A DNA stretch of 64,000 nt from an uncultured Acidobacteriota bacterium (GTDB lineage: Bacteria > Acidobacteriota > Thermoanaerobaculia > Multivoradales > UBA5704), in contig CAVYRF010000002.1 of the NCBI GenBank assembly GCA_963770895.1, positions 5,664,001-5,728,000 on the forward strand, written 5' to 3'. The position numbers and the translations under genes were made by a program. Below, in pieces: positions 12,984 through 56,085 of this stretch (positions within the stretch are counted from its first letter, which is position 1; the number at the start of each line of letters is the position of its first letter). Under the pieces are notes generated by a model, which was not told where the DNA came from, ran no database searches, and worked only from the letters and a program-made list of their open reading frames with translations.

Positions 12984-15607
12984 GCCGCCGAACGCCCCCG
13001 CAGCGGTCGATCGGCCTGTTTGCGCCGGCGGGATCGGAGGACCCCACGCGGCAGGACAACCTGGGCGGGGAGGTGAGCCCGGAAGACTCGGCGCGCGAAC
13101 AGGCGGCGGCGGCCGGCGCCGTCGCGGGCTATGTCGACCTGGCCCTGCCGCTGCCGCTGCCCGACGCGCTGACCTATGCGGTGCCGGCGGGGTGCGATGC
13201 GCTGGCGGTGCCCGGCGCGCGGGCGCGGGCGCCGGTCGGCAAGCGCCGGCTGGTGGGGGTGATCGTGGCGCGGCGCCCGGCGCCGCCGCCGGGGGTGGCG
13301 GTGCGGCAGCTCGAGGCGGTCCTCGACCGCGAGCCGGTGCTGGGCGAGGACCTGCTGGATCTGGCGCGCTTCACCGCTTCCTACTACCTGGCGCCGCTGG
13401 GCGAGGTGCTGCGCTCGATGCTGCCGGCCGACCTGGCGCCCTGGGGAGACCGGCGGCTTCGCCTCACCAACCAGGGCGCCCTGTCGCTGCCGCGCGCCGG
13501 GGACGCCGGCGCCTGCGAGGCGGCGATCATCGAAGCGCTGCGCGAAGGCGGGCGGATGGCGGTGTCGGACCTGCAGGTGAAAGTGGGCCTGCCGGGTTTC
13601 GAGGCCGCCCTGGCGGCACTCGAACAGAGCGGCCGCATCGCCGGCGAGGACGGCAGCACCCGCTCGACGCGCTACGTGCCGGCGGTCGCCCTGGCGCCGG
13701 AAGTCGCGCCCGAGGCGGTCGGCCGCTCGGCGCCGGCCCGCGAGGTGGTGCAATACCTGGCGGCGGTGGGGCGGCCGGCCACCAGCGCCGAAGTGATGGC
13801 GGCCGTCGGCTGCGGCGCCGGCGTCCTGCGGCGCCTGATCGCGCGGGGCGTCCTGCGTCAATTCACCCAGGTCGAGCGGCTGTCGCTGGACCGCCACCGC
13901 CTGGCGCCGCTCGCGCCGCCTGGGCCGGCGGGGACGCTGGAGCCGGCAGCGCCAGGTTTGCCCCCGGCATCCCCCCTGGACGCGGCGTCGCCGTGGCAGC
14001 TGCGCGCCGACCAGGCGGCGGCCGTGGCGGAGCTGGTCGCGGCGATCGAGCAGCGCCGGTTCCTGCCGGTGCTGCTGCAGGGCATGACCGGCTCGGGCAA
14101 GACCGAGGTCTACCTGCGTGCCGCGGCGGCGGCGATCGAGCGCGGCCGCTCGGCGATCCTGCTGGTGCCCGAGATCGCCCTGGTGCCGGCGCTGGCGCGC
14201 GAGGTGCAGGCCCGCTTCGGCGATCGCCTGGCGATCCTGCACTCCGGCCTGGGGGCAGGCGAGCGCAACCAGGAATGGGAGCGGGTCCGCCAGGGCGGGC
14301 CGATGGTGGTGCTGGGGCCGCGCTCGGCACTGTTTGCGCCGGTGGCAGACCTGGGCCTGCTGGTGGTGGACGAAGAGCAGGACTCGGCCTACAAGCAGGA
14401 GGTCACGCCGCGCTACCAGGCGCGCGACCTGGCCCTGGTGCGCGGCCGCGCCGCCGCCGCCGCGACGCTGCTGGTGTCCGCCACCCCCAGCCTGGAGAGC
14501 CGCCACAACGTCGCCCTGGGCAAGCTCGGCCTGCTGCGCCTGACCGCCCGCTTCGGTCATGGCGCCTTGCCAACCGGCATCCTGGTCGACCTGCGCCAGG
14601 AAGAGGTGGCGCGCCGCCGCCCCGGCGAGGTGCAGTTTTCGGCCCGCCTGCGCGCCGAGATCGCCGCCACCCTGGAAGCGGGGGAGCAGGCCATCCTGCT
14701 GCGCAACCGCCGCGGCTACTCGCCCATGCTGCTGTGCCGCGCCTGCGGCGAGGCGATGCGCTGTCCCGACTGCGGCCTGCCGCGCACCTACCACCGCAGC
14801 CTGCGCCGCCTGCTCTGCCACTACTGCGGCCAGGCGGTCAACGCGCCCCAGGTCTGTCCGGTCTGCGGCGAAAGCGCCCTGGAGCCGATCGGCGCCGGCA
14901 CGGAGCGGGTGGAGGAGGACTTTCAGGCGCTCTTTCCGGGCGTCCCGGTGGACGTGCTGGACCGCGACAGCACCCGCCGGCCGGGCGGCATCGCGGCGGT
15001 CCTGGCGCGCTTCGAGCGCGGTGACGCGAGGGTGCTGATCGGCACTCAGATGGTGTCCAAGGGGCACCACTTCCCGAACGTCGCGCTGACCGCGGTGCTG
15101 ACCGCCGATTCCTATCTCAGCTTCCCCGACTTTCGCGCCGTCGAGCGCACCTACAACCTGCTCACCCAGGTGGCCGGCCGCGCCGGCCGCGGCGACCGTC
15201 CCGGCCGCGTGGTCATCCAGACCTTCCACCCCGAGCATTACGCCATCCAGGCCGCCCTGTCCGGTGACGACGACGCCTTCCTGGCCGAAGAGATGCGCTT
15301 CCGCCGCGTCTTCCACTATCCGCCCTTCACCCGCATGGCGCAGCTCCTGGTCCACGACCGCAACCGCGACCGCGCCCACGCCGCCATCGAAGACCTGGCC
15401 GCCGCCCTGTCCCAGCACACCGCGGGCCGCGCCGTCCGCCTCACCGGCCCCGCCCCCGCCCCCTTCGAACGCCTGCGCGGCGAATGGCGCTACCAGCTCC
15501 TGGTCCGCGGCGCCTGGAGCGACGTGCACCGCCTGCTGAGCGAAGCCCTGCCCAAGACCCCAGCCTACGACCTGACGGTGGATATCGACCCGCAGCAGCT
15601 ACTTTAG
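12980..15607 (+). CDS. priA: Primosomal protein N' (replication restart helicase)
   Basis: GMTGSGKTEVY, LVPEIAL, DEEQD, SATPS, four CxxC pairs, GTQMVSKGHHFP, QVAGRAGR and DIDP. Start is uncertain (GTG 12980 via GTGA overlap, or 13073). Confidence 0.95.
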   Translation: MSRRTPPQRSIGLFAPAGSEDPTRQDNLGGEVSPEDSAREQAAAAGAVAGYVDLALPLPLPDALTYAVPAGCDALAVPGARARAPVGKRRLVGVIVARRPAPPPGVAVRQLEAVLDREPVLGEDLLDLARFTASYYLAPLGEVLRSMLPADLAPWGDRRLRLTNQGALSLPRAGDAGACEAAIIEALREGGRMAVSDLQVKVGLPGFEAALAALEQSGRIAGEDGSTRSTRYVPAVALAPEVAPEAVGRSAPAREVVQYLAAVGRPATSAEVMAAVGCGAGVLRRLIARGVLRQFTQVERLSLDRHRLAPLAPPGPAGTLEPAAPGLPPASPLDAASPWQLRADQAAAVAELVAAIEQRRFLPVLLQGMTGSGKTEVYLRAAAAAIERGRSAILLVPEIALVPALAREVQARFGDRLAILHSGLGAGERNQEWERVRQGGPMVVLGPRSALFAPVADLGLLVVDEEQDSAYKQEVTPRYQARDLALVRGRAAAAATLLVSATPSLESRHNVALGKLGLLRLTARFGHGALPTGILVDLRQEEVARRRPGEVQFSARLRAEIAATLEAGEQAILLRNRRGYSPMLLCRACGEAMRCPDCGLPRTYHRSLRRLLCHYCGQAVNAPQVCPVCGESALEPIGAGTERVEEDFQALFPGVPVDVLDRDSTRRPGGIAAVLARFERGDARVLIGTQMVSKGHHFPNVALTAVLTADSYLSFPDFRAVERTYNLLTQVAGRAGRGDRPGRVVIQTFHPEHYAIQAALSGDDDAFLAEEMRFRRVFHYPPFTRMAQLLVHDRNRDRAHAAIEDLAAALSQHTAGRAVRLTGPAPAPFERLRGEWRYQLLVRGAWSDVHRLLSEALPKTPAYDLTVDIDPQQLL

Positions 15608-15647
15608 GCCTGGCTGAGGTTGCTCCAGGAGAGGACCGCTCGGGACT

Positions 15648-17561
15648 CTAATGTTGGAGCGCCCATGTCAGGTCAGTGTTGTTCGACGGCGGGTATTGTT
15701 TCAGGTATTCCTGCGGAATCCTTGCCAGCTCGGCTCTCACATCTGCCGTGGTGTGAGGCCCTCCGGCGCGCGCGATGACGGCCAACGCCGTCGCCTTGAG
15801 ATAGCGTGTACGGTTGAGGTCCGCCGATTCACTATTGAACCAGCGCTCGGTCTCGCGATCGCCTTCATTGTTGTCGCGAGCTGCCAGCTTGGAGATCTCC
15901 GCCATGATCCCCAGGGCAGAGTCCAGCTCCTGGAGCGCCAAGGTTGCGTATCGTAGCCGAGAGCGATCGTTCTCCGGGTTCGGCCTGTCTTGCACCAGGA
16001 AGGTGCGGGCGACCAGCAGCAGCGCCCAGCCTTTGTATTCGCGTTGAATGATTCGCCTGGGAGGCGTGAGACGGATACTGTTCACGCTGTCGATCCGAGT
16101 GGCAAGGCTTTCGCCCTCCTGCCGCACATGTTCAGGCCAACCCGGATTGGCTGCTTCGAAGTCGCCGCGAAGAACCTGGATATCCTTCATATAGGAGATC
16201 ACACGGTAGTCCTCGGCGGTCTTTTTCAGGTAGTCAGACTGGGTCCGATACAGCCCGATGATCAGCGCGGCACTGACCACGGCGAGCCCTGCCACCGCCC
16301 AGATCAGGCCGCGCCGTCTCAGTTGATCGCGCCTGCGCACCCGGCTCTCGAGCACGATCGGCGTCATGACTTCGTGGATCAGCTCCACCTGTGTCTGGTG
16401 GAAACGTTCTTCGAAGCGCAGGAGCCTGCGATCGACCAGCCGGTCCAGCGCTTCGCGGGTCACGCCCTGACTGCCCACCGCTTCCGCCAGGAACACGCTG
16501 GCCGGGTTACCGGCAGGGGTGACCATGCGGCTTTCGATGAGTGAGCGCACCGGCCTGCCGGAATCCACCAGGCAACGTTCATAAAAGGCTGCCAGGATCT
16601 CGTGCGAAGAGCTCAGCACCAGGTTGGAGCTGATCGTCTCCAGCCGCTGCAACTTGCGCCGGCTGTTGAGCTCACGGCAGAAAAGGCTCAGGATCGCCGG
16701 TTCGATCTCCAGCGTTTGCCGGTCGTTGGCCGTGTCCAGCTGTACGTCCTGCCGCCTTCCGGCGACGACCTTGAGGATCTCGGATGCCGCCTGCCGGTCG
16801 ACCAGGCCGATGCGCGGTTTCAGGATGGCATCCAGCGCCTGGTCGCCATTCATGGGCAGCAGGCGATATCGATTTTGCATCAGCGACGGCATGCGCGCCT
16901 GCAACTCGACGAGGTCGGCCAGGAAGTCTTCGCGCAGGCACAGCAGCACGCGCACCTTCTGCCGGTCGAATGGGAAGTCCAGGTCCTGGTCGGTCCGCTC
17001 CACTCGTTCGCGCACCGCTTGGGGGACCTGGTTTTCGATCAGATCCGCCAGCTCGACAAGGAACGAATCGACCCCGCCGGCATACTGCCTGCCGTGGGTG
17101 AAGATCTCTTCGAACGGGTCGAAGACCAGGAGCGGTGTCAACAGCCGATTGCGGCGATCGAAAAACGGAGTGCGGTGGAAGTACTCCCAAAGCGTCTGGT
17201 CGGCGGCCAGCGGCGGCACCTCGACGTCGTGCTCACTGGCAGCCTTGCCACAGGCGGCGCCGACCTGCGCGACGAGGCCCCGGTCGGCGGTGAAGTCCAG
17301 CCGGACCGGGATCGGCAGGATACCCGCCTGGCGCAGGAGGGGGTAAAGACCGGCGTTGAGCAGCGAGGTCTTGCCCAACCCGGAGCGGCCGAACAGGACG
17401 GTCAGGGTCTCGCGCTGGACCAGGGTGAACAGGTCGCGGCTCTCGCTATCGCGGCCGAAGTAGAAAGCCCGATCGGCCTCGCCAAATGCCTGCAATCCTG
17501 GATAGGGATCTTCGGTGCTGACACCAGGTACGGCAGCGACCTGTGGTCCGGAGGAAGTCAT
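15648..17561 (-). CDS. nSTAND1-like STAND NTPase with a single TM helix and C-terminal helical domain
   Basis: PYPGLQAF..FYFGRD, Walker A GRSGLGKTS, Walker B LLVFDPFEE, LREDFL, ELIHE; TM LIWAVAGLAVVSAALIIGLY. ATG at 17561 overlaps the upstream stop (ATGA). Confidence 0.85.
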   Translation of the reverse strand: MTSSGPQVAAVPGVSTEDPYPGLQAFGEADRAFYFGRDSESRDLFTLVQRETLTVLFGRSGLGKTSLLNAGLYPLLRQAGILPIPVRLDFTADRGLVAQVGAACGKAASEHDVEVPPLAADQTLWEYFHRTPFFDRRNRLLTPLLVFDPFEEIFTHGRQYAGGVDSFLVELADLIENQVPQAVRERVERTDQDLDFPFDRQKVRVLLCLREDFLADLVELQARMPSLMQNRYRLLPMNGDQALDAILKPRIGLVDRQAASEILKVVAGRRQDVQLDTANDRQTLEIEPAILSLFCRELNSRRKLQRLETISSNLVLSSSHEILAAFYERCLVDSGRPVRSLIESRMVTPAGNPASVFLAEAVGSQGVTREALDRLVDRRLLRFEERFHQTQVELIHEVMTPIVLESRVRRRDQLRRRGLIWAVAGLAVVSAALIIGLYRTQSDYLKKTAEDYRVISYMKDIQVLRGDFEAANPGWPEHVRQEGESLATRIDSVNSIRLTPPRRIIQREYKGWALLLVARTFLVQDRPNPENDRSRLRYATLALQELDSALGIMAEISKLAARDNNEGDRETERWFNSESADLNRTRYLKATALAVIARAGGPHTTADVRAELARIPQEYLKQYPPSNNTDLTWALQH

Positions 17562-18937
17562 GAGAACCCCCGGCTCCTCAGCTGCCGAGCTTTGATCGCC
17601 TCTTTGACCTGCTGGATGAAGTCCTGTGTGGGGCGGCCCTGCGGCGCAACGTGCCATTGAAGATCGTGGAACTCTTTGGGAATTCCGTTTGCCCCCTGCT
17701 CAATGTCGTCGATGGCGACGGGTAGGATGAATCGAGCCTCAGGGTCGACACCGCGATTCAGAGCCGATTTCCACTCGTTTCGATAGTGGCCTTCGTCGCG
17801 CCGGGCGGCCTCTTTCGACAGAAGCGGCAGGAACAGCGCACAGTCCGCAATGCGGCTCGGTATGGTGAGCGGCCACGCGTCACCTGTCGGCAGGCTATGT
17901 CTGTCCATCCACACTTCAACATTCTGGCTCACCAGAGCGGTGTACAGATTCTGTGCCGCCACCAGGTCCTCATTGGCATAGCTGAGGAACACCTTATTGC
18001 CTGCGGTCCGGCCGCCGCCGCTCGCCGCGCCGGGCGCAGACCCCGGTATGGGCGACGAGCCGCGCGGGCTCTCCTGCTGCCAGCGCGCGTAGAGCTCTGC
18101 GACGAAGGGCACCGGGTCGCCTGCGGGATGCGTCTCGATCCTGCACTGCCGCAAGAAGAGAGCGAGATCGAGATCGAGCTTGGCGCGGTGGTCGATCACG
18201 AATTTGGGTTCTTCCGAGGATAGAGGGCGATTGACCAGCATGCGCAGGAAACACCGTGCCAGCCCGTCGGGGAAGCCGCAACCGAGAAACAGCAAGGTGC
18301 GGTTCCGCAGCGCTTCGAACAGCGCAGGCAGCGTGCTTTCGCGCCGGTGCAGAGCATGCAGGAACTCCAGCGCGTCTTCCTCGGTGACCACATAGCCGCC
18401 CAGGCGGGAGATCCGGCCCAGGATCTGGAACACCTGGGCGTGCTCCAGGGCCCCGGGGGCACCGGAGAGGTCTTCGCGCGCCGAAGAGGTGGAGAAGCTC
18501 AACCTGCGGGTCTGCGGTTTGCCGCCGTAGCGCTCGCCGTCGATGGCGTTGGCGAGGAGCTCGTCGAAGGTGGTGCTGATGAAGAGCCGGAAGTCTGAGA
18601 TCGCGGCAAGTTGACGCAGCGGCTCGGGAACCGGCCACGTCCGTTCCTCCACCAGGCCCCGCAGGGTGGAATGCAGTTTGCGTCGAAGACCGCCTTGCTG
18701 CAGATAGGCGACCGCCACCTGGTTGAGGTCGACTGAAAACGGGAGTCCCGTGGTGTCGATGCTCAAGTCTCTCACCAGGCGCTGCGCGAGGTAGGGATCG
18801 AGGAGGGTCTGCTGTCCATCGATCGAGACGGTAAGGAGCTCCTTGCCGACGATCGGGACCACCTCACCGTCGCGGACCAGCTGCAAAAGGCCGGCCCAAT
18901 CGAAGGCTTGGCTCAGCGCCGAAGGCTCTCCGGTCAC
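17558..18937 (-). CDS. SIR2-like domain plus C-terminal TIR domain protein
   Basis: VVPIVG, FISTTFDELL and TLLFLGCGF (SIR2_2-like); KVFLSYANED..VWMDR..GDAW..YRNEW..FILPVAID (TIR). Start is uncertain (GTG 18937 or 18970). Confidence 0.8.
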   Translation of the reverse strand: MTGEPSALSQAFDWAGLLQLVRDGEVVPIVGKELLTVSIDGQQTLLDPYLAQRLVRDLSIDTTGLPFSVDLNQVAVAYLQQGGLRRKLHSTLRGLVEERTWPVPEPLRQLAAISDFRLFISTTFDELLANAIDGERYGGKPQTRRLSFSTSSAREDLSGAPGALEHAQVFQILGRISRLGGYVVTEEDALEFLHALHRRESTLPALFEALRNRTLLFLGCGFPDGLARCFLRMLVNRPLSSEEPKFVIDHRAKLDLDLALFLRQCRIETHPAGDPVPFVAELYARWQQESPRGSSPIPGSAPGAASGGGRTAGNKVFLSYANEDLVAAQNLYTALVSQNVEVWMDRHSLPTGDAWPLTIPSRIADCALFLPLLSKEAARRDEGHYRNEWKSALNRGVDPEARFILPVAIDDIEQGANGIPKEFHDLQWHVAPQGRPTQDFIQQVKEAIKARQLRSRGFS

Positions 18938-19456
18938 GTCATCGGTCCGCTTCTCTCCGCTCGAGGTCACCGTCGAATTTTTACAGTATATTTGCAATTC
19001 TAGCAGGCTGCGGCGACCGTTGGAAGAGCGCGCGGTCCGATCGGCAGGCTCCCAGGAGCGGGCGGAGGAGGCGCGCGCCGGGGACGGATGACTCCCCTTG
19101 CGTCCACCTACCCGCGGTGTGCATGGCGGACCCAGGCAGCTCGCGGCGTCGCGGTCCAGGAGCGCCAAAGCACCCCCATCTAAAGAGGCGACTGCACAAT
19201 GGCACGGCGGATCGATGCAGTGCGGTGCGTAAGTGCATGAGTGCATGAGGTTGACAGAAGAAACTGAAGCAACTAACATCCGGCAGTTTACCCACACACT
19301 TCGCCGTGTTCACCACCTTCGCCCCCGGCTCAACCAGAACCCGCGCCAGCGTGTCGAAGGAAGAAGTGTGCCTGATGCTTGCGCCAGGATAGGCCATAAG
19401 GGTATGCATGTATACTTTGGTGCCCAGGGTTCGCGGCGAGGTCGGGACGGTAGTTC

Positions 19457-19485
19457 TTGACATCGCAATATATATAAACAAGAAT
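19457..19485 (+). promoter_or_regulatory. Sigma70-type promoter of the small peptide gene
   Basis: Perfect TTGACA-N17-AAGAAT in an AT-rich island just upstream of the AAGGAGGT RBS. Confidence 0.55.
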
Positions 19486-19508
19486 TTAAACAAGGAGGTG
19501 AACAAAGG

Positions 19509-19664
19509 ATGTCCAATGCATTCAAGGCGGTCCTGCTGCTCCTGGGTTTGGCCGGGCTTTTCGCCTTTGGCCTCTCTGCCCAAACCGACACGAACGCAAA
19601 TGAGAGGGCGCATTCTCCGCACACCAGCCAGGATCCGAACGGCGGCAATGGCGGTCCCCTCTAG
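19509..19664 (+). CDS. 51-aa secreted peptide with DPNGG motif (not in the ORF track)
   Basis: MSNAFKAVLLLLGLAGLFAFGLSA|QTDTNANERAHSPHTSQDPNGGNGGPL*. Perfect SD AAGGAGGT at 19492-19499; Sec-type signal peptide. Confidence 0.75.
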   Translation: MSNAFKAVLLLLGLAGLFAFGLSAQTDTNANERAHSPHTSQDPNGGNGGPL

Positions 19665-19705
19665 ACTCAATAGATCTCGATCGCTGGAATTCGACTAGGC
19701 CCGAT

Positions 19706-19757
19706 GGCCCCCAAAGGCAAGTCCCCGGTCGTTGGCCGAGGATCTCCGTTGGGGGCC
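19706..19757 (+). terminator. Hairpin downstream of the peptide gene, putative terminator or stabiliser
   Basis: GGCCCCCAA...TTGGGGGCC stem with additional inner pairing; only a weak U-tract follows. Confidence 0.4.
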
Positions 19758-19941
19758 TTGTGCGTCCAATCCCGGATCCCGTCCCATCGCGCGGTCACCG
19801 GCTGGAAGGCGGATTGAGCACCGGTTGACGCACCGGTTGCGGCCGTTGGTTCATCGGCCCGGCAGGGGAGCCGGAGCCGGCCCGTAGAGCCGCGCGCGGC
19901 CTCCCCCGAGCCTCAGTTTTGTGTTACCTTGGCCGCGGCTT

Positions 19942-20892
19942 ATGCCGACCGCCGACGCCTTCGACGAACCTCTCGTCCAGCTCCGCCGCAGGATTCAAGA
20001 GCTCGAGCGCTTTCCGCAGGGGAGCGGTCAGGACAAGGAGCTGGATCGCCTGCGGGCGACGCTCAAAAAGACCACCTCAGAGGTGTATGGCGGCCTGACG
20101 CGCTGGCAGAAGCTGCAGGTGGCCCGGCATGCCGAGCGGCCGTACACGCTCGACTACGTGCGGTACCTGATGACCGATTGGGTGGAGCTGCATGGCGACC
20201 GCGCGTACAGCGACGACGCGGCGATCGTCGCCGGCCTGGCTACCTTTGCCGGGCGCAGCGTGGCGGTGATCGGCCATCAGAAGGGGCGGGACACGCGCGA
20301 GCGCATCCATCGCAACTTCGGCCAGCCGCGGCCCGACGGCTACCGCAAGGCGCTGCGCATCATGAAGCTGGCGCAAAAGTTCGGCCGCCCGGTGCTGACC
20401 TTTGTGGACACCGCCGGCGCCTACCCCGGCATCGACGCGGAAGAGCGCGGCCAGGCCGAGGCGATCGCCCGCAACCTGCTGGAGATGTCGCACCTGGAAG
20501 TGCCGATCGTGGTCACGATCACCGGCGAGGGGGGCAGCGGCGGCGCCCTGGCGCTCGGCATCGGCGACCGCGTCTACGTGCTGGAGTACGGCACCTATTC
20601 GGTGATCTCGCCCGAAGGGTGCGCCGCCATCCTGTGGAAGGATCAGGAGCGCAAGGCCGATGCGGCGGAAGCCATGCGCCTGGCGGCCCCGGACCTGCTC
20701 GACCTGGGCATCGTGGACGGCATCATCGCCGAACCGCCCGGCGGCGCGCACACCGATCCGGAGGCCACCTGCCAGCGGGTGGGTGACACCCTGGCGGCCG
20801 CTCTCGACGAGCTCGAGCAGCTGAGCGTCGACGAGCTGCTGGCACGCCGCTACGACCGCTTCCGCTCGCTCGGCGCGTTCGACCAGCGATGA
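19942..20892 (+). CDS. accA: Acetyl-CoA carboxylase carboxyltransferase alpha
   Basis: ARHAERPYTLDY, ELHGDR, GHQKGRD, DTAGAYPG and GEGGSGGALA. Confidence 0.97.
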   Translation: MPTADAFDEPLVQLRRRIQELERFPQGSGQDKELDRLRATLKKTTSEVYGGLTRWQKLQVARHAERPYTLDYVRYLMTDWVELHGDRAYSDDAAIVAGLATFAGRSVAVIGHQKGRDTRERIHRNFGQPRPDGYRKALRIMKLAQKFGRPVLTFVDTAGAYPGIDAEERGQAEAIARNLLEMSHLEVPIVVTITGEGGSGGALALGIGDRVYVLEYGTYSVISPEGCAAILWKDQERKADAAEAMRLAAPDLLDLGIVDGIIAEPPGGAHTDPEATCQRVGDTLAAALDELEQLSVDELLARRYDRFRSLGAFDQR

Positions 20893-22762: not shown

Positions 22763-25534
22763 ATGGCCCGCCCGACCACCCGCCGAACGCTGACCCGCTT
22801 TCGGGTGCTGCTGATGCTGAGCCTGCTCGCCGCGGTGGCGATCGTCGTCGTCCTCTACATGTTCGGGCGCGCCGGCGCCAACCGCCCCCACCGCGCCAGC
22901 AGCGATGCGCCGGCGTTCGAAGAGGGGACGCGGATGATCGGCAAGGACTTCGACTACACCTTCACCCAGGGGGAGAAGTCGGTGTTCCGCGTGGTCGGCA
23001 ACAGCGTGCGGGTGGACAAGAACGATACGGTGTTCCTCGAAGACGTCTCGATCACCCTCTACGACAAGGAAGGGCGCCGCTTCGACGCCGAAAGCGACCA
23101 CGGCAGCATCAACCGCTCCACCAATGAGGGCATGCTGTGGGGCGACGTGTCGATGAAGGGGCCGTCGCAGCTGGAGATCTATTCGGCGCAGCTGCTCATC
23201 CAGCAGAAGGGGAACCTCCTGGTGACCCCGCGCGTGGCGCGCGTGCTGTATGCCGGCAAGTATTTCGGGCGTTGTGATTCGCTGCAGGCATGGCTGCCCG
23301 ACCAGATCTATTCGATGGTCGGCAACGTCCGCATTGAGACCTTCCCCGAAGTGCAGCCGCCGCTCAGGCTGGAGGCCGATCGCGCGTTCTACGAGCGCAA
23401 GAAGCGCTTGATCACCGTGCAGGACGGCGCCGAGCTGCACCGCGGCGCCGGCATCCTGGACGCCGACCACATCACCGGCCAGCTGTCCGACGACGAATCG
23501 TCGCTGACCTTCGTGCGCGCCACGACCGACGTGACCGGCGCCACCGCCGAAAACGAAACGCCCGGCGCGACGCGCCAGACGTGGGAAGGCAACGACCTGG
23601 CCGTGCTGCTGACGCCCAAGGGGAGCCTGGTGCGGCAGATCGACCTGAACGGCGTGCCCGGCAAGCCTGCCGTGCTGCATTCGATCGGCCCGGTCCTGTC
23701 GCGCACGCTGACCGCGCCGCACATCGACGGCGAGCTGGCAGAAAAGGACATCCTGCGCACGGCGCATGCCGCGGGCGGCGTCGACATCGAAGAGATCGGG
23801 CCGCCGCCGGCGCAGCCGGGCAAGGCGGGCGCGCCGGCGGCCGCCGGGCCGGCGGCAAAGGCAGCGCCGCAACCTGCAGGCAGAGCGGCCGCGGCAGGCA
23901 AGGGCACGGCGCCGGCGACAGTGGGCGGGGCCGGCGGGGCCAGGCCAGGTGCGCCGGCGGCGGCAGCCAAGGCGGGCAGCGCGGCGGCGGCGGCAAAAGG
24001 CGGTGCGGGAGCCGCCGCGGTCGCCGGCAAGGCGCCCAACGGCGCGGCGGCGGCCGGCGCCGGCCGCCGGGGCGGCGCGGCGGCGGCAAAGACGCAGCAG
24101 GCCGCGGCGCCGCAACCGGCGGTGCGCCATGCCCGCGGCGAGCGCGCCGACGCGACGTTCCGGACCGACGGCCAGATCGAGACGGTGAAGCTGACCAAGG
24201 ACGTGTCCTACAGCGACGACGAGGTCAACGCCACCGGCGACCGCGCCAACATGGACCTGGACGCCGGCCACGGCGACTTCTACGGCACGCCGGTGCACGT
24301 CGTCAGCAAGCGCGGCCAGATGCGCGCGCCGCACGTGATCTACACCTCGGCGGACGCCCTGCTGCACGCCGTCGAGGGGGTGAGGGCGCAGATCGAGCAG
24401 CAGAACGACGCCAACCTGGCCGGCTCGGTTCTGGGGGAGGGCAAGGGGCCGGTGATGGTGGAGTCGTCGGAGGCGTACTGGCGCCGCCCCGAATCGTCCT
24501 TCATCTTCCGTGGCGACGTGCGCGCCTGGCGGGGCGACAATCTGCTGCTGACCCCCGAGCTGATTGGCGACAGCCTGCCGGCCGGCAACGAGCTGACGGC
24601 CGTCACCGGCGTCAAGACCGTCTGGATCCCGGTGCAGGGCGAAAAGTCGAAATCGGGCAGCGGCGGCGGCGCCAAGAGCGGCGGCGCGGGCGGGGGAGGT
24701 GGCGGCACCGGCACCGCGCAGGCGGCCTCGACCGCCAAGGGCGCCGCTGCCGGGGCGGCCGCCAAGCCTGCCAAATCTGCCACGACGCCGGCGGCCACTG
24801 CAGCCGCCAAGCCCGCCGCCGCCAAGACGGCGATGGCGCCGGAGCGCAGCAGCGGCGGCCCGATCACCGTGCTGGCGACCAACATGTACTACCACGACTT
24901 CACCGGCCTGCTGACCTACAAGGGCAACGTCCACGTCGATCAGGACACCAAGACCCTCACCTGCCAGCAGCTCGACGTGAACCTGGACAAGGACCACAAG
25001 GCCGAAAAGATGACCTGCACCGGCGACACCCATTTCAACGACCCGGCGACCGGGCGCAAGATCGACGGCCAGACCGCCATCTACCGGGTCGAGATCCGCA
25101 AGATCGACGTGCTGGGCGAACCGGTGGTGATGCACGACCGGGACGGCAGCCTGGTGCACGGCAAGCGGCTGCGCTACTCGATCGACGACGGCAAGGTCGA
25201 GGTGCTGGGCAAGAACGACGGCCCGATGCCGGCGCCTCCGGCGACGGTCTCCTCGGCCACGGCGGTGGCCGCGGCGACCGCGGCGGGCGTGCCGGGGGAG
25301 CCCGGCCTGCCGGGTACGGCCGGCGGTGACACCACCACGGCGGGTGCGCCCGCGACTGGCGCGGCGGGTGCCCCGCCGACCGGCCCACCGGGCGAAACGG
25401 GCACGGCCACGACGGCCCCGGTTCCCCCTGGCGCGAGCGGCGGGGCGGGCAGCGGGAGCGCGACGACGACGGCGCCCTTGCCGCCGCCGGCGGGCGGGTC
25501 CCCCGCAACGGCGGGCGCAGGGGGCGTACGATGA
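22763..25534 (+). CDS. LptC/LptA-like fused beta-jellyroll LPS transport protein with low-complexity inserts
   Basis: N-terminal TM, repeated OstA-like segments ([15 protein letters not shown]), directly upstream of lptB. Confidence 0.75.
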
Positions 25535-39855: not shown

Positions 39856-40228
39856 GATTCATATCTCCTCTCGCCGCAGACCGCGGCCGTTGATTCCTTC
39901 AGGTTCAGGCGCTTCGCCACCTGCCGTGTGTCAGGGAACGCCCCAGAGTAAAACGCCAGCGTTTGCTGCCGCCCAGAGTTGGCCGTGGCCGTTTGTGCCA
40001 GTCCAGCCGGGTCAGGCCGGCTCCAAACCAGCTCCCCGAACCCTCTTGCATTCATCCACTCTGCGCCGTGCCTCACGAAACGATCCTTGGCCGGATCAAC
40101 CCGGAAGGCAAGTCAACATTGGCTCTCTGGCGAGCCCACACAATGTCTCTGACCGGCGTGACCCAGCGTCTCCCGCAAATGACCCAGAGGAGCACCACAT
40201 CAAGCAGGGCGGGCTGCGGGCGAGGGAC

Positions 40229-40595
40229 TTTCTCCCGCCGTTGGAGGGGGTGGGCGCCGGTACAGGGATGGGCTTGATTGCAGGCCCGCGCCGGGCGCCC
40301 GGCAAATGCTTGCGATCAAGCCGAGCCGGACCGGCGCCCGTCTCGGCCGTTGGGAGCAAGGCCACCGCCGTTCCGGCCTCGCGCCAGTGTTGACGCGGGG
40401 CCGGAACGGCGTATCTGACGACGCCATGCCTCTGGCGCGGGGCAGATGGGCGGGAGCGGTTTCAAGGGCCGGTGTTGCGCCGTGCACCCCGCGGTGCGAT
40501 CAGAGCAGGCACCAGCACAGCCTTGCCGCGGGGGCATGGCGCTGGAGGCCTTCTCTCGCCGTTGGTGGCGGGCGCCGGTGGCGGGGGGGTGGGCT
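40229..40595. repeat. ~320 bp palindrome-containing tandem repeat, unit 1 plus tail of a preceding unit
   Basis: Similar to 43373-43850; internal hairpin GCCGTTCCGGCC...GGCCGGAACGGC at 40367-40410. Confidence 0.75.
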
Positions 40596-41102: not shown

Positions 41103-41915
41103 TCAGCTTGCCTCCTCGACGGAGAGCGCTTCGGCGACGTGGGGCTCGCTGCGCGTCAGCAGGCCTGCCTTGCGCTTTTCCTTCAGCCGGTAGCTCTCGC
41201 CTTTGATGTTGACGATCGTCGAGTGGTGCAGCAGGCGGTCGAGAATCGCCGTCGCGATCACCTGGTCGCCGAAGACCTGGCCCCAGCCGGCCAGACTCTG
41301 GTTGGACGTGATGAGAATCGAGCCCCGTTCGTACCGGCGCGACACCAGTTGGAAGAGTAGATTCGCACCGAGACGGTCCAGCGGTAGATACCCGATCTCG
41401 TCTATTACCAATAGCTTGGGCTGGATGAGCTGCTTCAGCTTTTCCTCCAAGCGGTTCTCCTGGTGCGCCCGCGTCAAGGTGTTGACCAGCGCCGTCGCCG
41501 TCGCGAAGGCCGTGCGGTAGCCGGCAGCGCAGGCCTTCAGTCCCAGGGCTACCGACAGGTGCGTCTTGCCGACGCCGGGCGGCCCCAGCAGCAGTACGTT
41601 GTCGGCGTCAGCGATGAAACGACAGGTGGCGAGCTCGCGGATCACCTTGGGCTCGATCGACGGCTGAAACTTGAAGTCGAAGCTCTCCAGCGTCTTGTGG
41701 AACGGGAAGCGCGCCATGCTCGTCTTCATCGCCGTGTGGCGCTCCTGCTTGGCCGCCAGTTCCCGACCCAGCAGATCCTCGAGCATGTCGGTGTAGGGCA
41801 GATCCTTCTTGCTCGCCTCCTGTAACAGCGCCGGCAGCTGGTCGGCAGTGCGCACCAGTTTCAGGCGCCGAAGCTGCTCTTGGAGCCGATCGATCTGGAC
41901 CGCACCGGCGGTCAT
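41103..41915 (-). CDS. istB: IS21 helper ATPase IstB
   Basis: KTLESFDF, GPPGVGKTHL, DEIGY, ITSN, AILDRLLHH and GESYR. Confidence 0.96.
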   Translation of the reverse strand: MTAGAVQIDRLQEQLRRLKLVRTADQLPALLQEASKKDLPYTDMLEDLLGRELAAKQERHTAMKTSMARFPFHKTLESFDFKFQPSIEPKVIRELATCRFIADADNVLLLGPPGVGKTHLSVALGLKACAAGYRTAFATATALVNTLTRAHQENRLEEKLKQLIQPKLLVIDEIGYLPLDRLGANLLFQLVSRRYERGSILITSNQSLAGWGQVFGDQVIATAILDRLLHHSTIVNIKGESYRLKEKRKAGLLTRSEPHVAEALSVEEAS

Positions 41916-43300
41916 GAGCGCACCTCACTGAGCAGCCCTTCGTAGCGACCGAGTGGCCGGACCTCGACCTCGCCGATCCGCTCGACGTAGGCTGGATCGA
42001 AGCGCGGCGGCCCCATGGCCGGCTCGGGGGCGGCGCGCCGCGGAACCTCCCGTCCTGGACCGTTCCAGCGCGCCACTTGGTACTTGCCCGTGAGCCGGAC
42101 GTGGCGGATGGGATCGACCCCGGGACGGTGAATCCAAATCTCCTCGGACAAAATGCGCACTTCCACCACCGCACCTGCCCACTCCAGCGACACCGGATAG
42201 CGGTTGGACTCCACCGCCACGTAGCCGTCGCGCGGCACGCGCCGGCTCTCGACGCGCTCCCGCGGTGGCGGCGACCGGCGGTCCACCGGGATGAGCCGCT
42301 CGGCCCGAGCGAAGCGCTCCGCCGGCTTCTCATGCGTCGTGCCGTGCACCCGCTGGTCAGCCACCTCGACGCACCAGCCCAAAAGGTAGTCGTTGAGTGA
42401 CTCGAAGCTGGCGAAACGACGACCCGCCAACGCATTGCCCTTGATGTATTTGACACCGCTCTCCACCTTGCCTTTCGTTTGAGCCCGGTAGTAGCGGCAC
42501 AGCTGCACCTTGACTCCGTAGAAGTCCATGCGATCCTTGAACGTGGCGTTTCAGCTCACACGGCCCGTGGCCTCGTCTTTGGCAATGACGATCGTCCGCG
42601 GGTTGTCGTAGAGCAAGCTCTCCGGCCGACCGCCAAAGTGAGCAAATGCCGCCGCATGAGCCTCCAGCAACGACTCCAAACCCTCATTGCAGTAGGCTTT
42701 GGCGAACAACCGCCGGCTGAAGCCCAGTACCATGGTGAACAGGTGCACCCGTACCTGCTGCTCGCCGAGATAGATCCAGGTGCTGCCCCAGTCCACCTGG
42801 CCTTGCTTACCTGGCTCGGTCTCGAAGCGCACCGTCGACTCGGCCGGCCGCTGCGCCGCCCGCCACGACGCGATGTACTTCGCCACCGTCGAGGCGCTGC
42901 ACCGCTGGCCAAGATGCGCCAGCTCACGACTCAGCACCACGCTGTTGAACCCCACCTCCGGGGCTCGCACCCGCAAGAACGGCACCCAACGGTCCAGGAC
43001 ACGCCCCCGCCGCCGACGGTGCTGCACCTGCCAGACCCGCGCCCACCACTTCCGCACGGTCTTTACGTCGAGGCCGAGCTGCCGCGCAATCGCCTTCTTC
43101 GCCACTCCACGCTCCCGCAAAGCGGCGATCGCTCCCCACATCCCCTCGTCGACCAACTCGCCCTCCTGGGCGCCTCCAGGCGCCGCAGAGAGCATGTCCG
43201 ACTCCGGTGCCGGCAACGGCGCCGGCTCCTGCTCCGCATGCACCTCGGCCGCCGGCACGCCGGCCGCCGCCACTTCGCTGCTGCTGCTTGTTTCGCTCAT
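41912..43300 (-). pseudogene. istA: IS21 transposase IstA interrupted by an in-frame TGA
   Basis: RFETEPGKQGQVDW, LGFSR and YDN upstream; TKGKVE downstream in the same frame; stop at 42551-42553 in GRVS*NATF. Confidence 0.88.
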
Positions 43301-43372
43301 TCCCTTCCTCCGTGCGGAGGGGGGGGGAATTTTAGCGTCCAGCATGGGGGGAATTTAGGCGTCTCGCTGACA

Positions 43373-43850
43373 CGGCTTGACCGCAGGCCCGCGCCGGGCG
43401 CCCGGCAATACTGCGATCAAGCCAAGCTGGATCGGCGCCCGCCTCAGCCGTTGGGAGCAAGGCCTGCGCCGTTCCGGCCCGCGTCAGTCTTGACGCGGGC
43501 CGGAACGGCGCATCTGGCGATGCCTTGCCTCTGGCGCGGGCCAGATGGGCAGGAGCAGTTCCGAGGGCCGCTGTTGGCCGCGCCCCTCGCGTCAAGGTCG
43601 TGCTGGTGTCTGGTGTGATCGCGCCGCGGGGGGGCAGCGGCGCTGGAGGCTTCTCTCCCGCCGTTGGCGGCGGGCGCCGACCCCGATGGGCTCGACCGGC
43701 GCGCTCTCGCCAGGCAAGCCCGTGCCGGGCGCCCGGCAATGCTTGCGATCAAGTCGAGCCGGACCAGCGGCCCCGTCTCAGCCGTTGGAGCAAGGCTCCC
43801 GCCGTTCCGGCCCGCGCCAGTCTTGACGAGGGGCCAGAACGGGCAAGCCG
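43373..43850. repeat. ~320-330 bp tandem repeat, unit 2 and partial unit 3
   Basis: Hairpin copies at 43468-43509 and from 43801; shared CCGGGCGCCCGGCAA..TGCGATCAAG and GCCGTTGG(G)AGCAAGGC. Confidence 0.75.
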
Positions 43851-44027
43851 ACGACAGGCCTGGCCTCCGACGCGGGGGGGCCTTTCTCCCGCCTTTCGGG
43901 CGGCCAGGACCTTGCCGAGCTGGGCCAAGGTCTGCTTACCGTCGATCTTGTTCCCCGAGGATGCAGAAGGAGTAGGGGAGGCCAAGGGGCGGCGCGGTGG
44001 GGAAGCCGGCCGCCCTCCGGGGGGCGG

Positions 44028-45430: not shown

Positions 45431-46195
45431 TCATGATTTCTTGGCTTCGGCGCCGCGGGCGGCTGCCTCTTCGGACCGCATACTCGGACCTGTCATCTCC
45501 AGAATGACGGCGTGATGCACCAAGCGGTCGATCGCGGCGGCAGTGGTCATCGGGTTCTTGAAGATCTGATCCCACTGCGAGAAGACCAGATTGCTGGTGA
45601 TCAGGACGCTCTTGCGCTCGTAGCGCTCGGCGAGGAAGGTGAAGAGCACCTCCATCTCCTCGCGGTCTTGCTGGACGTAGCCGAGGTCGTCGACCAGGAC
45701 GGCGTCGAAGGCGTCGAGGCGCCGCAGCTCGGCATCGAGGGCGAGGTCGCGTTTGGCGACCAACAGCCGTTGAACCAGCCGAAAGGCCGGCGTGAAGAGC
45801 ACTTTGTAGCCGCGCTGGACCAGCTCGTGACCGACGGCACACAAGGCGTGGGATTTTCCCCTTCCTGGCAGCCCAAAGGCCAAGAGATTCTCCGCCCGCT
45901 CGACAAAGCCGCCCTCGCACAGGCTTGGCAGAACTCGTCGTACCTTGGCGGGAAGACGGGACAAATCCAGTGTTGTCAGCGTCTTTTCGGCGGGTAGTTG
46001 CGAAGCCCGCCGCAGCCGATCGAGCTTGCGCTGTTGCCGCTCGTCGAGCTCGAGCTGCGTCAAATGGGCCAGGTAGTTTTGGAAGGGCCATCCTCCCTGC
46101 TCAGCCCTCTTCGCCACCTCGTCGTGGTAGGTCACGAACGCCGGCAGCTTGAGCTCTCGCAGCTGGATCGGGAGGCCCGCTGGCGTCGCACTCAT
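45431..46195 (-). CDS. istB: IS21 helper ATPase IstB
   Basis: GLPGRGKSH, DDLGY, LAERYE, ITSNL and AAAIDRLVHH. Confidence 0.96.
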   Translation of the reverse strand: MSATPAGLPIQLRELKLPAFVTYHDEVAKRAEQGGWPFQNYLAHLTQLELDERQQRKLDRLRRASQLPAEKTLTTLDLSRLPAKVRRVLPSLCEGGFVERAENLLAFGLPGRGKSHALCAVGHELVQRGYKVLFTPAFRLVQRLLVAKRDLALDAELRRLDAFDAVLVDDLGYVQQDREEMEVLFTFLAERYERKSVLITSNLVFSQWDQIFKNPMTTAAAIDRLVHHAVILEMTGPSMRSEEAAARGAEAKKS

Positions 46196-47670
46196 GACGC
46201 CACCTGCGCCAGCAGGGCATCGTAGCTGTGGAGGTCGACGACCGGCATCGCAACCTCTGGCACAGTCAGCGACGTCCGTGCCGGTTGCACCAAGCTCTTG
46301 ACGCGCTCGTACAGCGGCACCTCTTCGCTCAACAGATCCAGCGCCGCCTCTACCTCGGACTCCATCGTCGAGGCGGCCAAATGCAGAATCCGCAGATACT
46401 CCAGGTCGGCCCGCGCCGTGGCCTGCGCGCCGTGGAGCTGGTCGTAGGCGCGGCGAAACGCCGGCGTCGGGAACAACTCCTCACGGTACCGGTACCGCGC
46501 GAAGGCGCCGGGCTTGCGCACCAGCGACCAAATCACGTGCCGGTAGTCGATACGGTGACCGTTTTCGCCGCGACGCCGCTCGATCGTCAGCTGGTGCCGG
46601 CCGCCATGGAAGACCTCCAGCCTGGCGTCGAAGATCCGCACGCGCACTCGCTCGCCCTGGAGCCGCGACGGCACCGAGTAGGCGTTGTGTTTGACTCGGA
46701 TCGTGCTCCAGCCGCTGACTCCAACTTCAACCTCGCTGTACTCGGGGAGACGCTCCACGCGCAGCTGGCGCATCGCATCGAGCTCCACCGTCAGCCGCCG
46801 GCTCCGCAGCCGGTTGGCTTTCTCCGTCACCTGCTCAAGCCAAGACTCGTACGCCTCCTGGCTGCCAAACTCACGGCTGCCCCGCAACAGCAGGTGCTGC
46901 TCAAGCCGCCGCTTGAGGGCGCCGTTGAGAGCCTCCACATCGCCATTCTGATGCTTCTGTCCCGGCTCGATAGTCCGCGGCTCCATCCCCAAATGACGCA
47001 TCAACGCCTCGTATTCAGCGTTGAAGCCCCGCTTGCCCGTCCGCAAATCGTGCGTCGCCGCCGTCGAGTTGTCGGTCTGGTGAAAGTGCGCCACCCGACC
47101 CAGCCGGAACACCGCGGCCTGGACGCCGCGGCGCAGCGCCGCCAACGACTCCGAAAAACACACCGTCGGCCACGACCAATTTGAGTACGGCAGCACGACA
47201 TGGCACAGCTGGTGCGGAAACGCCTCTCCGCCGATCGTGATCGCCAACTCCTTGGCCCAGGTGAAGTCGCTCTGTAGCGCCTCCCCTGGACGATGCTCCT
47301 GCGCGAAAAAGACCTCCTTGGCCGGGCCTTCCTGCGCCCGCCATGCCTTCACCCGGCGCTGAAACGTCCGCACCTGGCCAGGCTCGTAGCGGCCCGGCCG
47401 CCGCGACAGCAGATCCTCGAACAGCACCTTCGCCTCCAGCTCCGGCGCATCGGCCAGGCGCTCCACCACCGCCGGCCAATCCTCCACGAACGGGTCGTCC
47501 CGCGTCCGCCACGACCGCGGCTCCTTGACCTCCGAGGGCACCTTGCCCAGGTCCCGGTATCGCCTCGCGGTGTTGCGGTGCAGACCCGCCCGAAGGGCGG
47601 ACAAGCCCACCTTGCCATGTCGCTCCAGCTCTTCCATGAGTCGCCTCACCTGTGCGTCGCTTGTGATCAA
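46192..47670 (-). CDS. istA: IS21 transposase IstA
   Basis: RSWRTRDDPF, RTFQRR, QEHRPGEALQSDF, HQTDN, NGDVE and YSVPSRL. Confidence 0.95.
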   Translation of the reverse strand: MITSDAQVRRLMEELERHGKVGLSALRAGLHRNTARRYRDLGKVPSEVKEPRSWRTRDDPFVEDWPAVVERLADAPELEAKVLFEDLLSRRPGRYEPGQVRTFQRRVKAWRAQEGPAKEVFFAQEHRPGEALQSDFTWAKELAITIGGEAFPHQLCHVVLPYSNWSWPTVCFSESLAALRRGVQAAVFRLGRVAHFHQTDNSTAATHDLRTGKRGFNAEYEALMRHLGMEPRTIEPGQKHQNGDVEALNGALKRRLEQHLLLRGSREFGSQEAYESWLEQVTEKANRLRSRRLTVELDAMRQLRVERLPEYSEVEVGVSGWSTIRVKHNAYSVPSRLQGERVRVRIFDARLEVFHGGRHQLTIERRRGENGHRIDYRHVIWSLVRKPGAFARYRYREELFPTPAFRRAYDQLHGAQATARADLEYLRILHLAASTMESEVEAALDLLSEEVPLYERVKSLVQPARTSLTVPEVAMPVVDLHSYDALLAQVAS

Positions 47671-54553: not shown

Positions 54554-55080
54554 GAGGTCTTCTTGCCGGCCATTCCGGTGGCGGTGAGTTGGCGGGTCAG
54601 GGCAGCGAGGCAGCGATTGGTGGTCTTGCTGATGCTGGTGGGGCTGTACCCCAGACGCTTTGCCAGTTCCGGCGGCTCATAGCCCTGGCTGTAGCGCAGC
54701 AGCAACAGGGCGCGGCAGCGGGTCGGCAAACGTTCGATCGCCATGATCAGATCGCGCCGCAGATCGGCGTCTTCCTGCTCGGGAGCCATCGGCTCGGCCA
54801 TGAATTCAAGCACTGCAGCATCGACGGCATCATATAATTTACGGCGATGCTCGCGCCAGTACAGCAGGCACTTATTTCTAAGTGTGCCGATCAGCCATGC
54901 CTCGTGGTCACGGATCGCGTGCCGCTGGTAGACCAGCGCGAGCAAGGCCTGCTGCAGGATGTCTTCGGTGTCCTGCGGGGGAATGCGGTAATGCGCGAAC
55001 AGCGCCTTCATCCGCGGGCGGACGGATTTCAGAAACTGATCGAAGCTGGTTTCGGCTTCAGAGATATCGGCTGCGCTCAT
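54550..55080 (-). CDS. ECF-type sigma-70 factor (paralogue 1)
   Basis: Region 2 DTEDILQQ..EAWLIGTLRNKC; region 4 LPTRCRALLLLRY..ELAKRLG..SIS. Confidence 0.88.
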   Translation of the reverse strand: MSAADISEAETSFDQFLKSVRPRMKALFAHYRIPPQDTEDILQQALLALVYQRHAIRDHEAWLIGTLRNKCLLYWREHRRKLYDAVDAAVLEFMAEPMAPEQEDADLRRDLIMAIERLPTRCRALLLLRYSQGYEPPELAKRLGYSPTSISKTTNRCLAALTRQLTATGMAGKKTS

Positions 55081-55267
55081 AAACAAACACGTCTAAATTG
55101 TGCCCACCATAGCATCTGTGGGGAGCCGTGTCCAGAAGACACAGCTCTCCCCATCTCGACGCGATGCGAACGCCGCAGAGTCTCTTCAAGAGCTACGGGA
55201 CGGCGAGGAGCACCGGGTCGGCGGTCAGCCCACCTCCGCCCTCCCCTCACCGGAGAAGGAGGGGGAA

Positions 55268-55471
55268 CTAGCCGCCGCCGTTGGGGTCCATGCTGATCCC
55301 GAAATCGGAGAACATGTTGGCCAGGCCGTTGATCACGCTGGCCAGCTGCTGCATCAGGCGGGAGCCGGCACTGGCCGCGGTCGGCCGATGGGTGCCGCAG
55401 AACGCGGAAGCAGGGGCGAGGGCGGCGACCAGGGTGACGATGGCAACGGTACGGCGCAAGGAAGTCTTCAT
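55268..55471 (-). CDS. 67-aa secreted peptide ending MDPNGGG
   Basis: AGAGGAG RBS; signal peptide MKTSLRRTVAIVTLVAALAPASA; C-terminus SDFGISMDPNGGG. Confidence 0.8.
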   Translation of the reverse strand: MKTSLRRTVAIVTLVAALAPASAFCGTHRPTAASAGSRLMQQLASVINGLANMFSDFGISMDPNGGG

Positions 55472-55520
55472 GACTTGATACTCCTCTGGGGTTTCCCGAC
55501 GCTTCAGGCGCCGGTAAATA

Positions 55521-55545
55521 GCAATCTAGCTCTAAGCTACGTTGC
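55521..55545. promoter_or_regulatory. Imperfect palindrome upstream of the peptide gene (candidate operator)
   Basis: GCAA-TC-TAGCT-CTA-AGCTA-CG-TTGC. Confidence 0.35.
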
Positions 55546-56085
55546 CGCTGGACCATCCGGAGAGACAGACATGTGGTCACAGCCTGGTGGCCAAGCGTCG
55601 CCAGCCCTGGCCCGACGCGCCGTCCACCGCCACAAGCTACCCTCCTTGCAAGCCGAAGACCTGATCCTGCAATGGTTTGCAAGAGGCAAGGCGCTCCAGA
55701 AGGGTTTGCGGGCGGCGAGGCGCGCTCTGGGGGAGGCTTGGCGGGCGCTACCGGGCTCGCGAACCGAGAACGCCGACGGCGCCAATCGGCATGCTGGTCC
55801 CGTTCGGCCTGCGGTTCAACGGGCTGGCGGCCAAGGTGAACCACCTGGCGCTGCTTGTGGTCGTAGCCATGGACTTCCGCATCGAGTTTCGCGACGTGCC
55901 GGTGACGTGACCACCCTGACAGGGCGCCCCTGGCGCACCGCTCACAGGCACAGTGATCGCCGGCGGGCGCGGCAGCGTGCCAGCGAACGATCGGCTGATC
56001 TACGGATTTTGGTCAGGCGGAAAGCGCAGACTCGCCCCTACAGGCCCATTGAGGGTCTGGATCGTAGGGGCGAGGCACCGCGGGT

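Follow-up and report, generated by a model that had tools for sequence, protein, structure and literature searches.

On balance, we judge it probable that the open reading frame (ORF) at 19509..19664 on the forward strand of the window (the whole 64-kb stretch of DNA that was analysed) encodes a real, lineage-restricted small peptide of 51 residues that is exported via Sec, with a C-terminal S-x-DPNGG that would be recognised or processed and with an action outside the cytoplasm as a signal or modulator. The proposal is built on the sequence features and the coding signature of the ORF, on the rarity and the repetition of its DPNGG motif, on the retention of the motif in one relative of a 67-residue sister peptide, and on the insertion in which the ORF lies.

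Results

The ORF and its putative expression signals

The ORF starts with ATG and its product is MSNAFKAVLLLLGLAGLFAFGLSAQTDTNANERAHSPHTSQDPNGGNGGPL, where residues 1-24 (19509-19580) are signal-peptide-like and the following 27 residues (19581-19661) make up the predicted mature part, QTDTNANERAHSPHTSQDPNGGNGGPL, which is acidic, has an N-terminal Gln and contains no hydrophobic stretches. Upstream on the same strand lie the Shine-Dalgarno (SD) sequence AAGGAGGT at 19492-19499, which ends 9 nt before the ATG, and a proximal promoter-like site TTGACA-17-AAGAAT at 19457-19485, which has 10 of the 12 consensus matches. A further promoter-like site found by the consensus scan, TTGACA-17-TAACAT at 19251-19279 (+), lies 230 nt upstream of the ORF, so that two such sites are present in about 1 kb, compared with 0.2 expected from shuffles. 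Downstream is an inverted repeat with 12-nt arms at 19706-19717 and 19746-19757 (+), 11 of the 12 positions being paired. A small unit with promoter, perfect SD, signal peptide and downstream hairpin had been described in the first-pass annotation, and each of these elements was found again here. The hairpin is present as an inverted repeat but is unconvincing as a terminator, having no U-tract and lying in a segment (19660-19790) whose fold is no stabler than those of shuffled sequences (z -1.07); as a candidate terminator it is weak. A perfect tandem direct repeat, GCACCGGTTG twice with 12-nt spacing (19818-19839), follows the hairpin in the right end of the island described below, before accA. 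The search of 19000-20100 against Rfam gave no match at E <= 1.

The SD 8-mer AAGGAGGT occurs three times in the window, where 0.84 occurrences are expected. It is noted that canonical strong SDs are under-represented there, GGAGG-N4-10-ATG being present 10 times in the whole window where shuffles predict 17.5. The source genome does not typically have strong SDs, and this counts against the ORF as a gene. The coding signature is as follows. The G+C content by codon position (0.62/0.48/0.73) has a pattern like that of the neighbouring island genes (0.69/0.44/0.77 and 0.68/0.46/0.78), and the codon log-odds score, which was trained on the confident genes of the window, is best in the frame of the ORF, with 0.02 versus -0.72 and -0.76 in the others. 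Longer ORFs of 96, 112 and 229 residues overlap it in other frames.

An anti-SD segment, TGTTCACCACCTT, is present at 19307..19319 (+), 172 nt upstream, and is complementary to the SD region at 19492-19504, forming an inverted repeat of 13 nt with 92% complementarity. The MFE and centroid folds of 19286-19530, corresponding to the longer leader, both contain the pairing, the z-score of -1.35 for this segment being not significant. In the longer leader as folded in the prediction, the pairing could provide translational control of the peptide.

Predicted signal peptide and probable export

The product begins with M-S-N-A-F-K, continues with the uncharged hydrophobic run of 16 residues A7-L22 and then reads L-S-A|Q. 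As is expected for Sec and signal peptidase I, the n-region is positively charged (K6, with no acidic residue in 1-6) and the h-region A7-L22 is uncharged and of a length within ~10-16 residues, its mean Kyte-Doolittle hydropathy being 2.6 in the 10-residue core and 2.17 in a 19-residue window. The rule-based check gave as cleavage candidates L22-S23-A24|Q25, where the Leu at -3 is allowed but uncommon, or A19-F20-G21|L22. The product is probably an exported small peptide.

How rare such a combination is was estimated with a heuristic rule of our own, which demands a basic n-region, at least 10 uncharged residues with a mean Kyte-Doolittle hydropathy of at least 1.9 and small residues at -1 and -3, together with a strong SD 5-18 nt upstream of the start, in ORFs of 30-120 residues. 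In the window the rule passes 2 of 1595 ORF/start combinations, namely the 51-residue ORF and the 67-residue ORF at 55268-55471 (-), while in 80 other bacterial loci (1,299,775 bp) it passes 10 of 37,422; as the rule was devised post hoc, when the peptides had already been seen, these counts are indicative and are not a clean test.

Homology searches

The peptide had been called unannotated, which needs to be amended: its exact sequence is already present in a public collection of predicted proteins, although only as a cluster with a single member. A word-indexed search among the proteins of 28-90 residues in 5.8 billion clusters returned only the self-match, and phmmer against 1.84 billion representatives returned the self-match and P0006 only. 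P0006 was judged to be spurious as a relative, being a surface-type repeat protein of 1450 residues in which eight 'HDPNGNY' repeats inflate the score. With tblastn, nothing was found at E <= 10 in plasmids and all the matches in the 80 fetched loci had E >= 1.3. There was no match to the peptide in Pfam and PADLOC; its sole NCBIfam match, of 12 bits (E 0.053) to the transmembrane (TM) segment of a transporter, does not place it in that family. The 51-residue peptide scored at best 0.85 and the 67-residue peptide at best 0.87 in the ESM Atlas, both below the lead threshold of 0.9. Since no homologue of the 51-residue peptide was found, conservation, which is the strongest test for a small gene, is missing.

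The DPNGG motif at two loci

The motif, found by six-frame search, occupies residues 42-46 (19632..19646, +) within SQDPNGG. In the six-frame translation of the window DPNGG occurs exactly twice, each time at most 10 residues from the stop of the 51-residue or the 67-residue ORF, which bears out the earlier statement that the two peptides have it in common. The 67-residue peptide (55268..55471, -) has a signal peptide ending in ASA|F, a helical middle and the C-terminal SMDPNGGG. In the six frames of the 80 other loci, amounting to 1,299,775 bp or about 2.6 million codons, no DPNGG is present. As compared by BLASTP, S-x-D-P-N-G-G is common to both peptides with 6 of 7 residues identical (SQDPNGG versus SMDPNGG), and beyond the 7-residue motif they have no alignable similarity. 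Among 977 ORF tails in the window, 588 of the 476,776 pairs (1.2e-3) share any 5-mer, and the shared words are mostly Arg/Ala/Pro-rich ones of non-coding frames. Judged on sequence grounds, it is very unlikely that DPNGG in the 51-residue peptide is due to chance. Moreover, because 2 of the 5 third codon positions differ between the two copies, the motif is not a copied piece of DNA.

In 5.8 billion clusters the 67-residue peptide has the relatives P0002 (99%) and P0003 (58% identical overall), the latter being its sole non-identical relative beyond P0002, and P0003 ends in SMDPNGG, with the motif unchanged. We conclude that the motif is, as far as sequence can tell, functional in the 67-residue family. 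An iterated profile search with that family passed 2 of 44 candidates, both of them known, and did not retrieve the 51-residue peptide. The latter is without the conserved Cys and the helical middle (LMQQLAS) of the 67-residue peptide, whose ORF has a third-codon-position G+C of 0.88. What the two have in common, with lengths of 51 versus 67 residues, is a signal peptide, S-x-DPNGG in the last 10 residues, a strong SD and the genome window. Therefore, which family the 51-residue peptide is assigned to depends on the definition: it is included if a signal peptide together with S-x-D-P-N-G-G at the C-terminus is taken as the definition, and not if full-length homology to P0002 and P0003 is required. 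As there are only two DPNGG in the window, none in 1.3 Mb of other loci and an invariant motif in P0003, a small motif-defined peptide family is likely. With regard to the family of DPNG peptides that had been suggested, the sharing of a motif beyond what chance would give and its retention in P0003 stand, but the family comprises two loci and no further member was found. Occurrences of DPNGG in full-text literature were judged to be unrelated from the titles and abstract openings.

The 67-residue ORF heads a line of genes that continues with those of an ECF sigma factor (54550-55086) and a TPR protein (52538-54553). The cluster as a whole (52538-57187, -) comprises two ECF sigma genes (54550-55086 and 56086-56649), the 67-residue peptide, the TPR protein of 671 residues and a family-less protein of 184 residues. 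The N-terminus of the TPR protein carries an H-x4-C-x2-C motif, which we take to be reminiscent of zinc anti-sigma domains. No TM-like segment was found in the TPR protein, and it has no similarity to the C-terminal domain of the STAND protein described below, so that the earlier idea that each peptide is placed next to a receptor is not borne out.

The insertion between priA and accA

The 51-residue ORF lies in a 4.3-kb insertion, or defence island, between priA and accA (15604..19915), as revealed by blastn against the contig of a Thermoanaerobaculia MAG (L001) that has the best AccA match in the genome collection (84%). Positions 1-1591 of this contig correspond to 14013-15603 of the window (82.9%) and positions 1637-2608 to 19916-20886 (84.3%). 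Since priA and accA are 45 nt apart in L001, versus 4312 nt in the window, 15604-19915 is an insertion, and this closest relative found is without the entire island. The G+C content is 0.53-0.68 inside the island and 0.70-0.79 in the flanking core genes outside it. No terminal repeats of at least 9 nt were found at the two island ends, no tRNA gene that could be an integration site was found in the window, and no integrase was found. The accA gene (ATG 19942) has no SD, and just upstream of it a conserved GTTTTGTG(C/T)TACCTTGG is present in the window and L001 alike.

The cargo of the island consists of three genes, namely those of a SIR2-TIR protein, a membrane-spanning nSTAND1 NTPase and the 51-residue peptide, the last being divergent from the other two across one spacer of about 530 nt. 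The neighbour that had been called TIR does have a TIR_2 domain, but the protein (17558..18976, -) is a fusion of SIR2_2 and TIR_2 (Pfam TIR_2 1e-16, SIR2_2 4e-10), i.e., an NADase-type effector. Its true start is probably GTG 18937 or GTG 18976 rather than the long-ORF start at 19297, because the long ORF aligns with the Paraburkholderia homologue only from about its residue 121 onward. The nSTAND1 NTPase (15648..17561, -; Pfam nSTAND1 E 5e-31) has its likely start at ATG 17561, overlapping the stop of the SIR2-TIR gene. It contains one TM helix at residues 451-469 (16251-16307; Kyte-Doolittle 2.52), and because the Arg-rich RVRRRDQLRRRG precedes this helix, the last 200 residues (15651-16250) should face outward. 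The putative extracytoplasmic domain that had been noted for the NTPase is thus confirmed in its features, the single TM helix, the RVRRRDQLRRRG flank and the C-terminal part of 200 residues. The AF2 single-sequence model of this C-terminal domain is all-helical (pLDDT 77, pTM 0.78). A fold search of the PDB with it gave none at E <= 0.001, the best E being 0.089 with TM <= 0.34, and the complex prediction of STAND residues 470-669 with peptide residues 22-51 gave a score of 0.02 (mark 0.34), which speaks neither for nor against binding.

Homologous SIR2/nSTAND1 loci were drawn from plasmid and chromid records. In a Paraburkholderia caribensis replicon (L081) a SIR2_2-TIR_2 protein of 546 residues, 32% identical over its length, is followed by an nSTAND1 protein of 660 residues with a TM segment at 433-451, while a Haliscomenobacter plasmid (L082) has a reduced form in which SIR2-EAD11 is followed by nSTAND1 with a TM-like segment near the C-terminus. 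A two-gene module of a SIR2(-TIR) effector and a single-TM nSTAND1 protein can thus be delimited at 15648-18976 (-) of the window, 3346-6965 of L081 and 732-3451 of L082. It recurs in Acidobacteriota, Burkholderiales and Bacteroidota, with a variable C-terminal domain that probably faces outward. The module has only weak PADLOC matches (TIR part, <=23 bits), and the plasmid table lists no annotation for its Paraburkholderia copy. The outward domains of the three STAND proteins are unalike, as tblastn covered only residues 29-399.

In the 8-11 kb examined at L081 and L082, neither of the two loci has a DPNG ORF or a comparable ORF of a small exported peptide. The strict signal-peptide rule gave none in L081 and, in L082, one ORF of 53 residues that has no SD and lies 4 kb downstream. 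The loose rule gave one unconvincing ORF of 89 residues in L081 and, in L082, the same 53-residue ORF together with a start codon inside the STAND gene and in its frame, a hit that marks the TM segment of the protein. As to the placement of the peptide next to the TIR/STAND pair, the two were co-inserted in one 4.3-kb island, but the linkage that had been expected to be conserved is seen at 0 of the 2 homologous loci, and L001 is without the whole island.

Other features of the window are recorded here. Three copies of a non-coding repeat that is about 200-270 nt long (40217-40477, 43374-43576 and 43705-43903), each containing a near-perfect palindrome and with no match in Rfam, flank an IS21-type element, whose IstB is at 41103-41915 and whose transposase is apparently split into ORFs 41912-42529 and 42551-43345; a second transposase-like gene is at 46192-47670. 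At 22763-25534 (+) a protein of 923 residues has an LptC-like N-terminus and an LptA/LptD_N-like C-terminus, and the stretch joining them (especially 23700-24150) has 80-84% G+C and a very strong AT skew of 0.6-0.7 and is probably a low-complexity linker. An ORF of 796 residues at 49960-52350 (+) has two LptF_LptG matches and is an apparent LptF-LptG fusion.

Discussion

We propose the following pathway for the 51-residue peptide. Its gene would have come as cargo of the 4.3-kb insertion, together with the SIR2-TIR effector and the membrane-spanning nSTAND1 NTPase. One or two sigma-70-like promoters would drive its transcription and the strong SD its translation, and the product would be exported through Sec, with the signal peptidase cutting probably after Ala24. 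The cleavage would free an acidic, disordered peptide of 27 residues into the periplasm or the medium. The 51-residue and the 67-residue peptides would then constitute a small family limited to this lineage, which would be set by the signal peptide and S-x-D-P-N-G-G and not by overall homology. We infer that the function resides in the C-terminal motif, which a single shared partner would read as a site of recognition or of processing, and that the variable middle may be a spacer. Asp-Pro and Asn-Gly bonds are chemically labile, and on such chemical grounds the motif might mark a place of processing or cyclisation, as had been suggested earlier. The export, the cleavage, the role as a signal or modulator and the existence of a partner are thus the inferred parts of the pathway, and the outward domain of the STAND protein would be one candidate for the target, though an improbable one.

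Other explanations are to be weighed against this pathway. The A+T-richer right end of the island might be simply a promoter region serving the island or accA-recJ, in which a frame, a hydrophobic start and a motif have come together by accident. That the peptide has no homologue at all is what would be expected of such a chance ORF, as are the longer ORFs overlapping it in other frames, high-GC DNA giving many ORFs. Moreover, since accA has been separated by the insertion from the DNA that used to precede it, and since the hairpin makes a poor terminator, a promoter reading from the island end into accA is plausible, which also fits. By contrast, it is rare for an ATG to be preceded by a correctly spaced perfect SD and followed by a signal-peptide-like start and coding-type codons (2 of 1595 combinations in the window, 10 of 37,422 in the other loci), and the one further ORF of this kind in the window has the same very rare pentapeptide at its end. 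We thus regard a chance ORF as unlikely, while giving it real weight. The ORF could also encode a small membrane protein that stays uncleaved, with a signal-anchor and a periplasmic tail of 27 residues, acting as an MgrB/SafA-like modulator of a membrane sensor or as a Hok-type type I toxin that is kept in check by the structure of its mRNA. In this case the hydrophobic run A7-L22, which is long for a signal peptide, the very short c-region and the Leu at -3 would be readily understood. The sister peptide, with its canonical ASA|F site and the same C-terminal motif, points instead to released peptides. As for the toxin, SD sequestration is known in the mRNAs of type I toxins, and in the fold predicted for the longer transcript the SD is paired with the segment lying 172 nt upstream; against this, the fold is not significant by its z-score of -1.35, the consensus scan found no antisense promoter, and the tail is acidic and Gly-rich, unlike the pore-forming toxins known to us. 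An uncleaved membrane protein is therefore, in our estimation, quite unlikely.

The model put forward earlier was that the secreted peptide is the ligand of the outward domain of nSTAND1, either as an activator or as an off-signal denoting 'self', and thereby gates the SIR2-TIR NADase. It draws on the joint insertion of the peptide gene and the SIR2-TIR/STAND operon, divergent from one spacer, and on the STAND TM helix with its positive-inside flank and the helical outside domain of 200 residues; in addition, periplasmic sensor domains have already been proposed for some STAND-type conflict systems, according to the parts of PMC10907252 available to us. If this model is true, it would be expected that loci of the same architecture also have such a peptide. 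Neither L081 nor L082 has a DPNG or comparable small exported ORF, the three STAND proteins have dissimilar C-terminal domains, and the same motif stands beside an unrelated ECF sigma/TPR pair, in which the TPR protein has neither a TM segment nor similarity to the STAND domain. The idea of a ligand and its receptor finds no support, and we hold it to be very doubtful. In the available parts of PMC8195603 and PMC10907252 small peptide partners of STAND systems are not mentioned, and among the matches listed in the literature search on STAND/TIR with a small secreted peptide in defense there was nothing relevant. Its most far-reaching form, which we mention as a long shot, is a bacterial NLR-like receptor that senses from outside: the periplasmic helical domain of nSTAND1 would sense the DPNGG tail of a secreted 'self' peptide encoded on the island, loss, modification or competition of this peptide (e.g., by phage or neighbouring cells) would switch on the SIR2-TIR NADase, and DPNGG would be a lineage-wide currency of extracytoplasmic signalling in Thermoanaerobaculia.

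Returning to the exported peptide with a C-terminal motif, we compare it with known systems. The pro-peptides of RRNPP systems (Phr, PapR, NprX and the phage AimP; Bacillota) are encoded by ORFs of 40-70 codons and have an N-terminal Sec signal peptide, a functional conserved C-terminus and a variable middle, with the gene located beside that of the regulator; the mature signal is the processed C-terminal oligopeptide, which is re-imported by Opp. By analogy, these would be the closest functional likeness to the DPNGG peptides, of which the 67-residue one adjoins a TPR protein. The differences are that the host here belongs to the Acidobacteriota (to the class Thermoanaerobaculia, judged by the closest match of AccA), that the 51-residue gene has no adjacent HTH-TPR or Rap-type receptor, its neighbours being SIR2-TIR, nSTAND1 and accA, and that the DPNGG peptides have no sequence similarity to any known family. 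MgrB and SafA of Enterobacteria are peptides of about 50 residues whose N-terminus is hydrophobic and whose short tail lies in the periplasm; their target is the periplasmic domain of a sensor with a single or two membrane passes. The 51-residue peptide is like them in size, hydrophobic N-terminus and short tail, but it has no homology to them, its cleavage is likely, and the candidate sensor is an NLR-like NTPase and not a histidine kinase. The third comparison is with the nSTAND1 conflict systems, nSTAND1 (Pfam PF20703) and its SIR2/TIR effectors having been defined by Kaur et al. 2021 (PMC8195603, in the parts available to us). The island resembles these in the pairing of an nSTAND1 NTPase with a SIR2_2-TIR_2 gene whose stop overlaps the start of the NTPase gene, and differs in the small exported-peptide gene, which is not a component described in those parts of the source and is absent from L081 and L082. 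From the sequences compared, the 51-residue peptide is an add-on of this island only.

As regards the meaning of these results, a compact defence island of 4.3 kb has been delimited, and the architecture of its nSTAND1 NTPase, membrane-spanning with an outward domain, recurs in two further phyla. Peptide quorum sensing in Gram-positive bacteria and their phages uses as its signals small exported peptides that carry a conserved tag at the C-terminus; to our knowledge, nothing comparable is known from Acidobacteriota. If the 51-residue peptide has no partner, it would be one more orphan small gene. Finally, we note that one copy of DPNGG is on the SIR2-TIR/STAND island and another leads an ECF-sigma operon, and that a motif-defined peptide family in the little-studied Acidobacteriota would open a testable route to cell-cell or envelope signalling.
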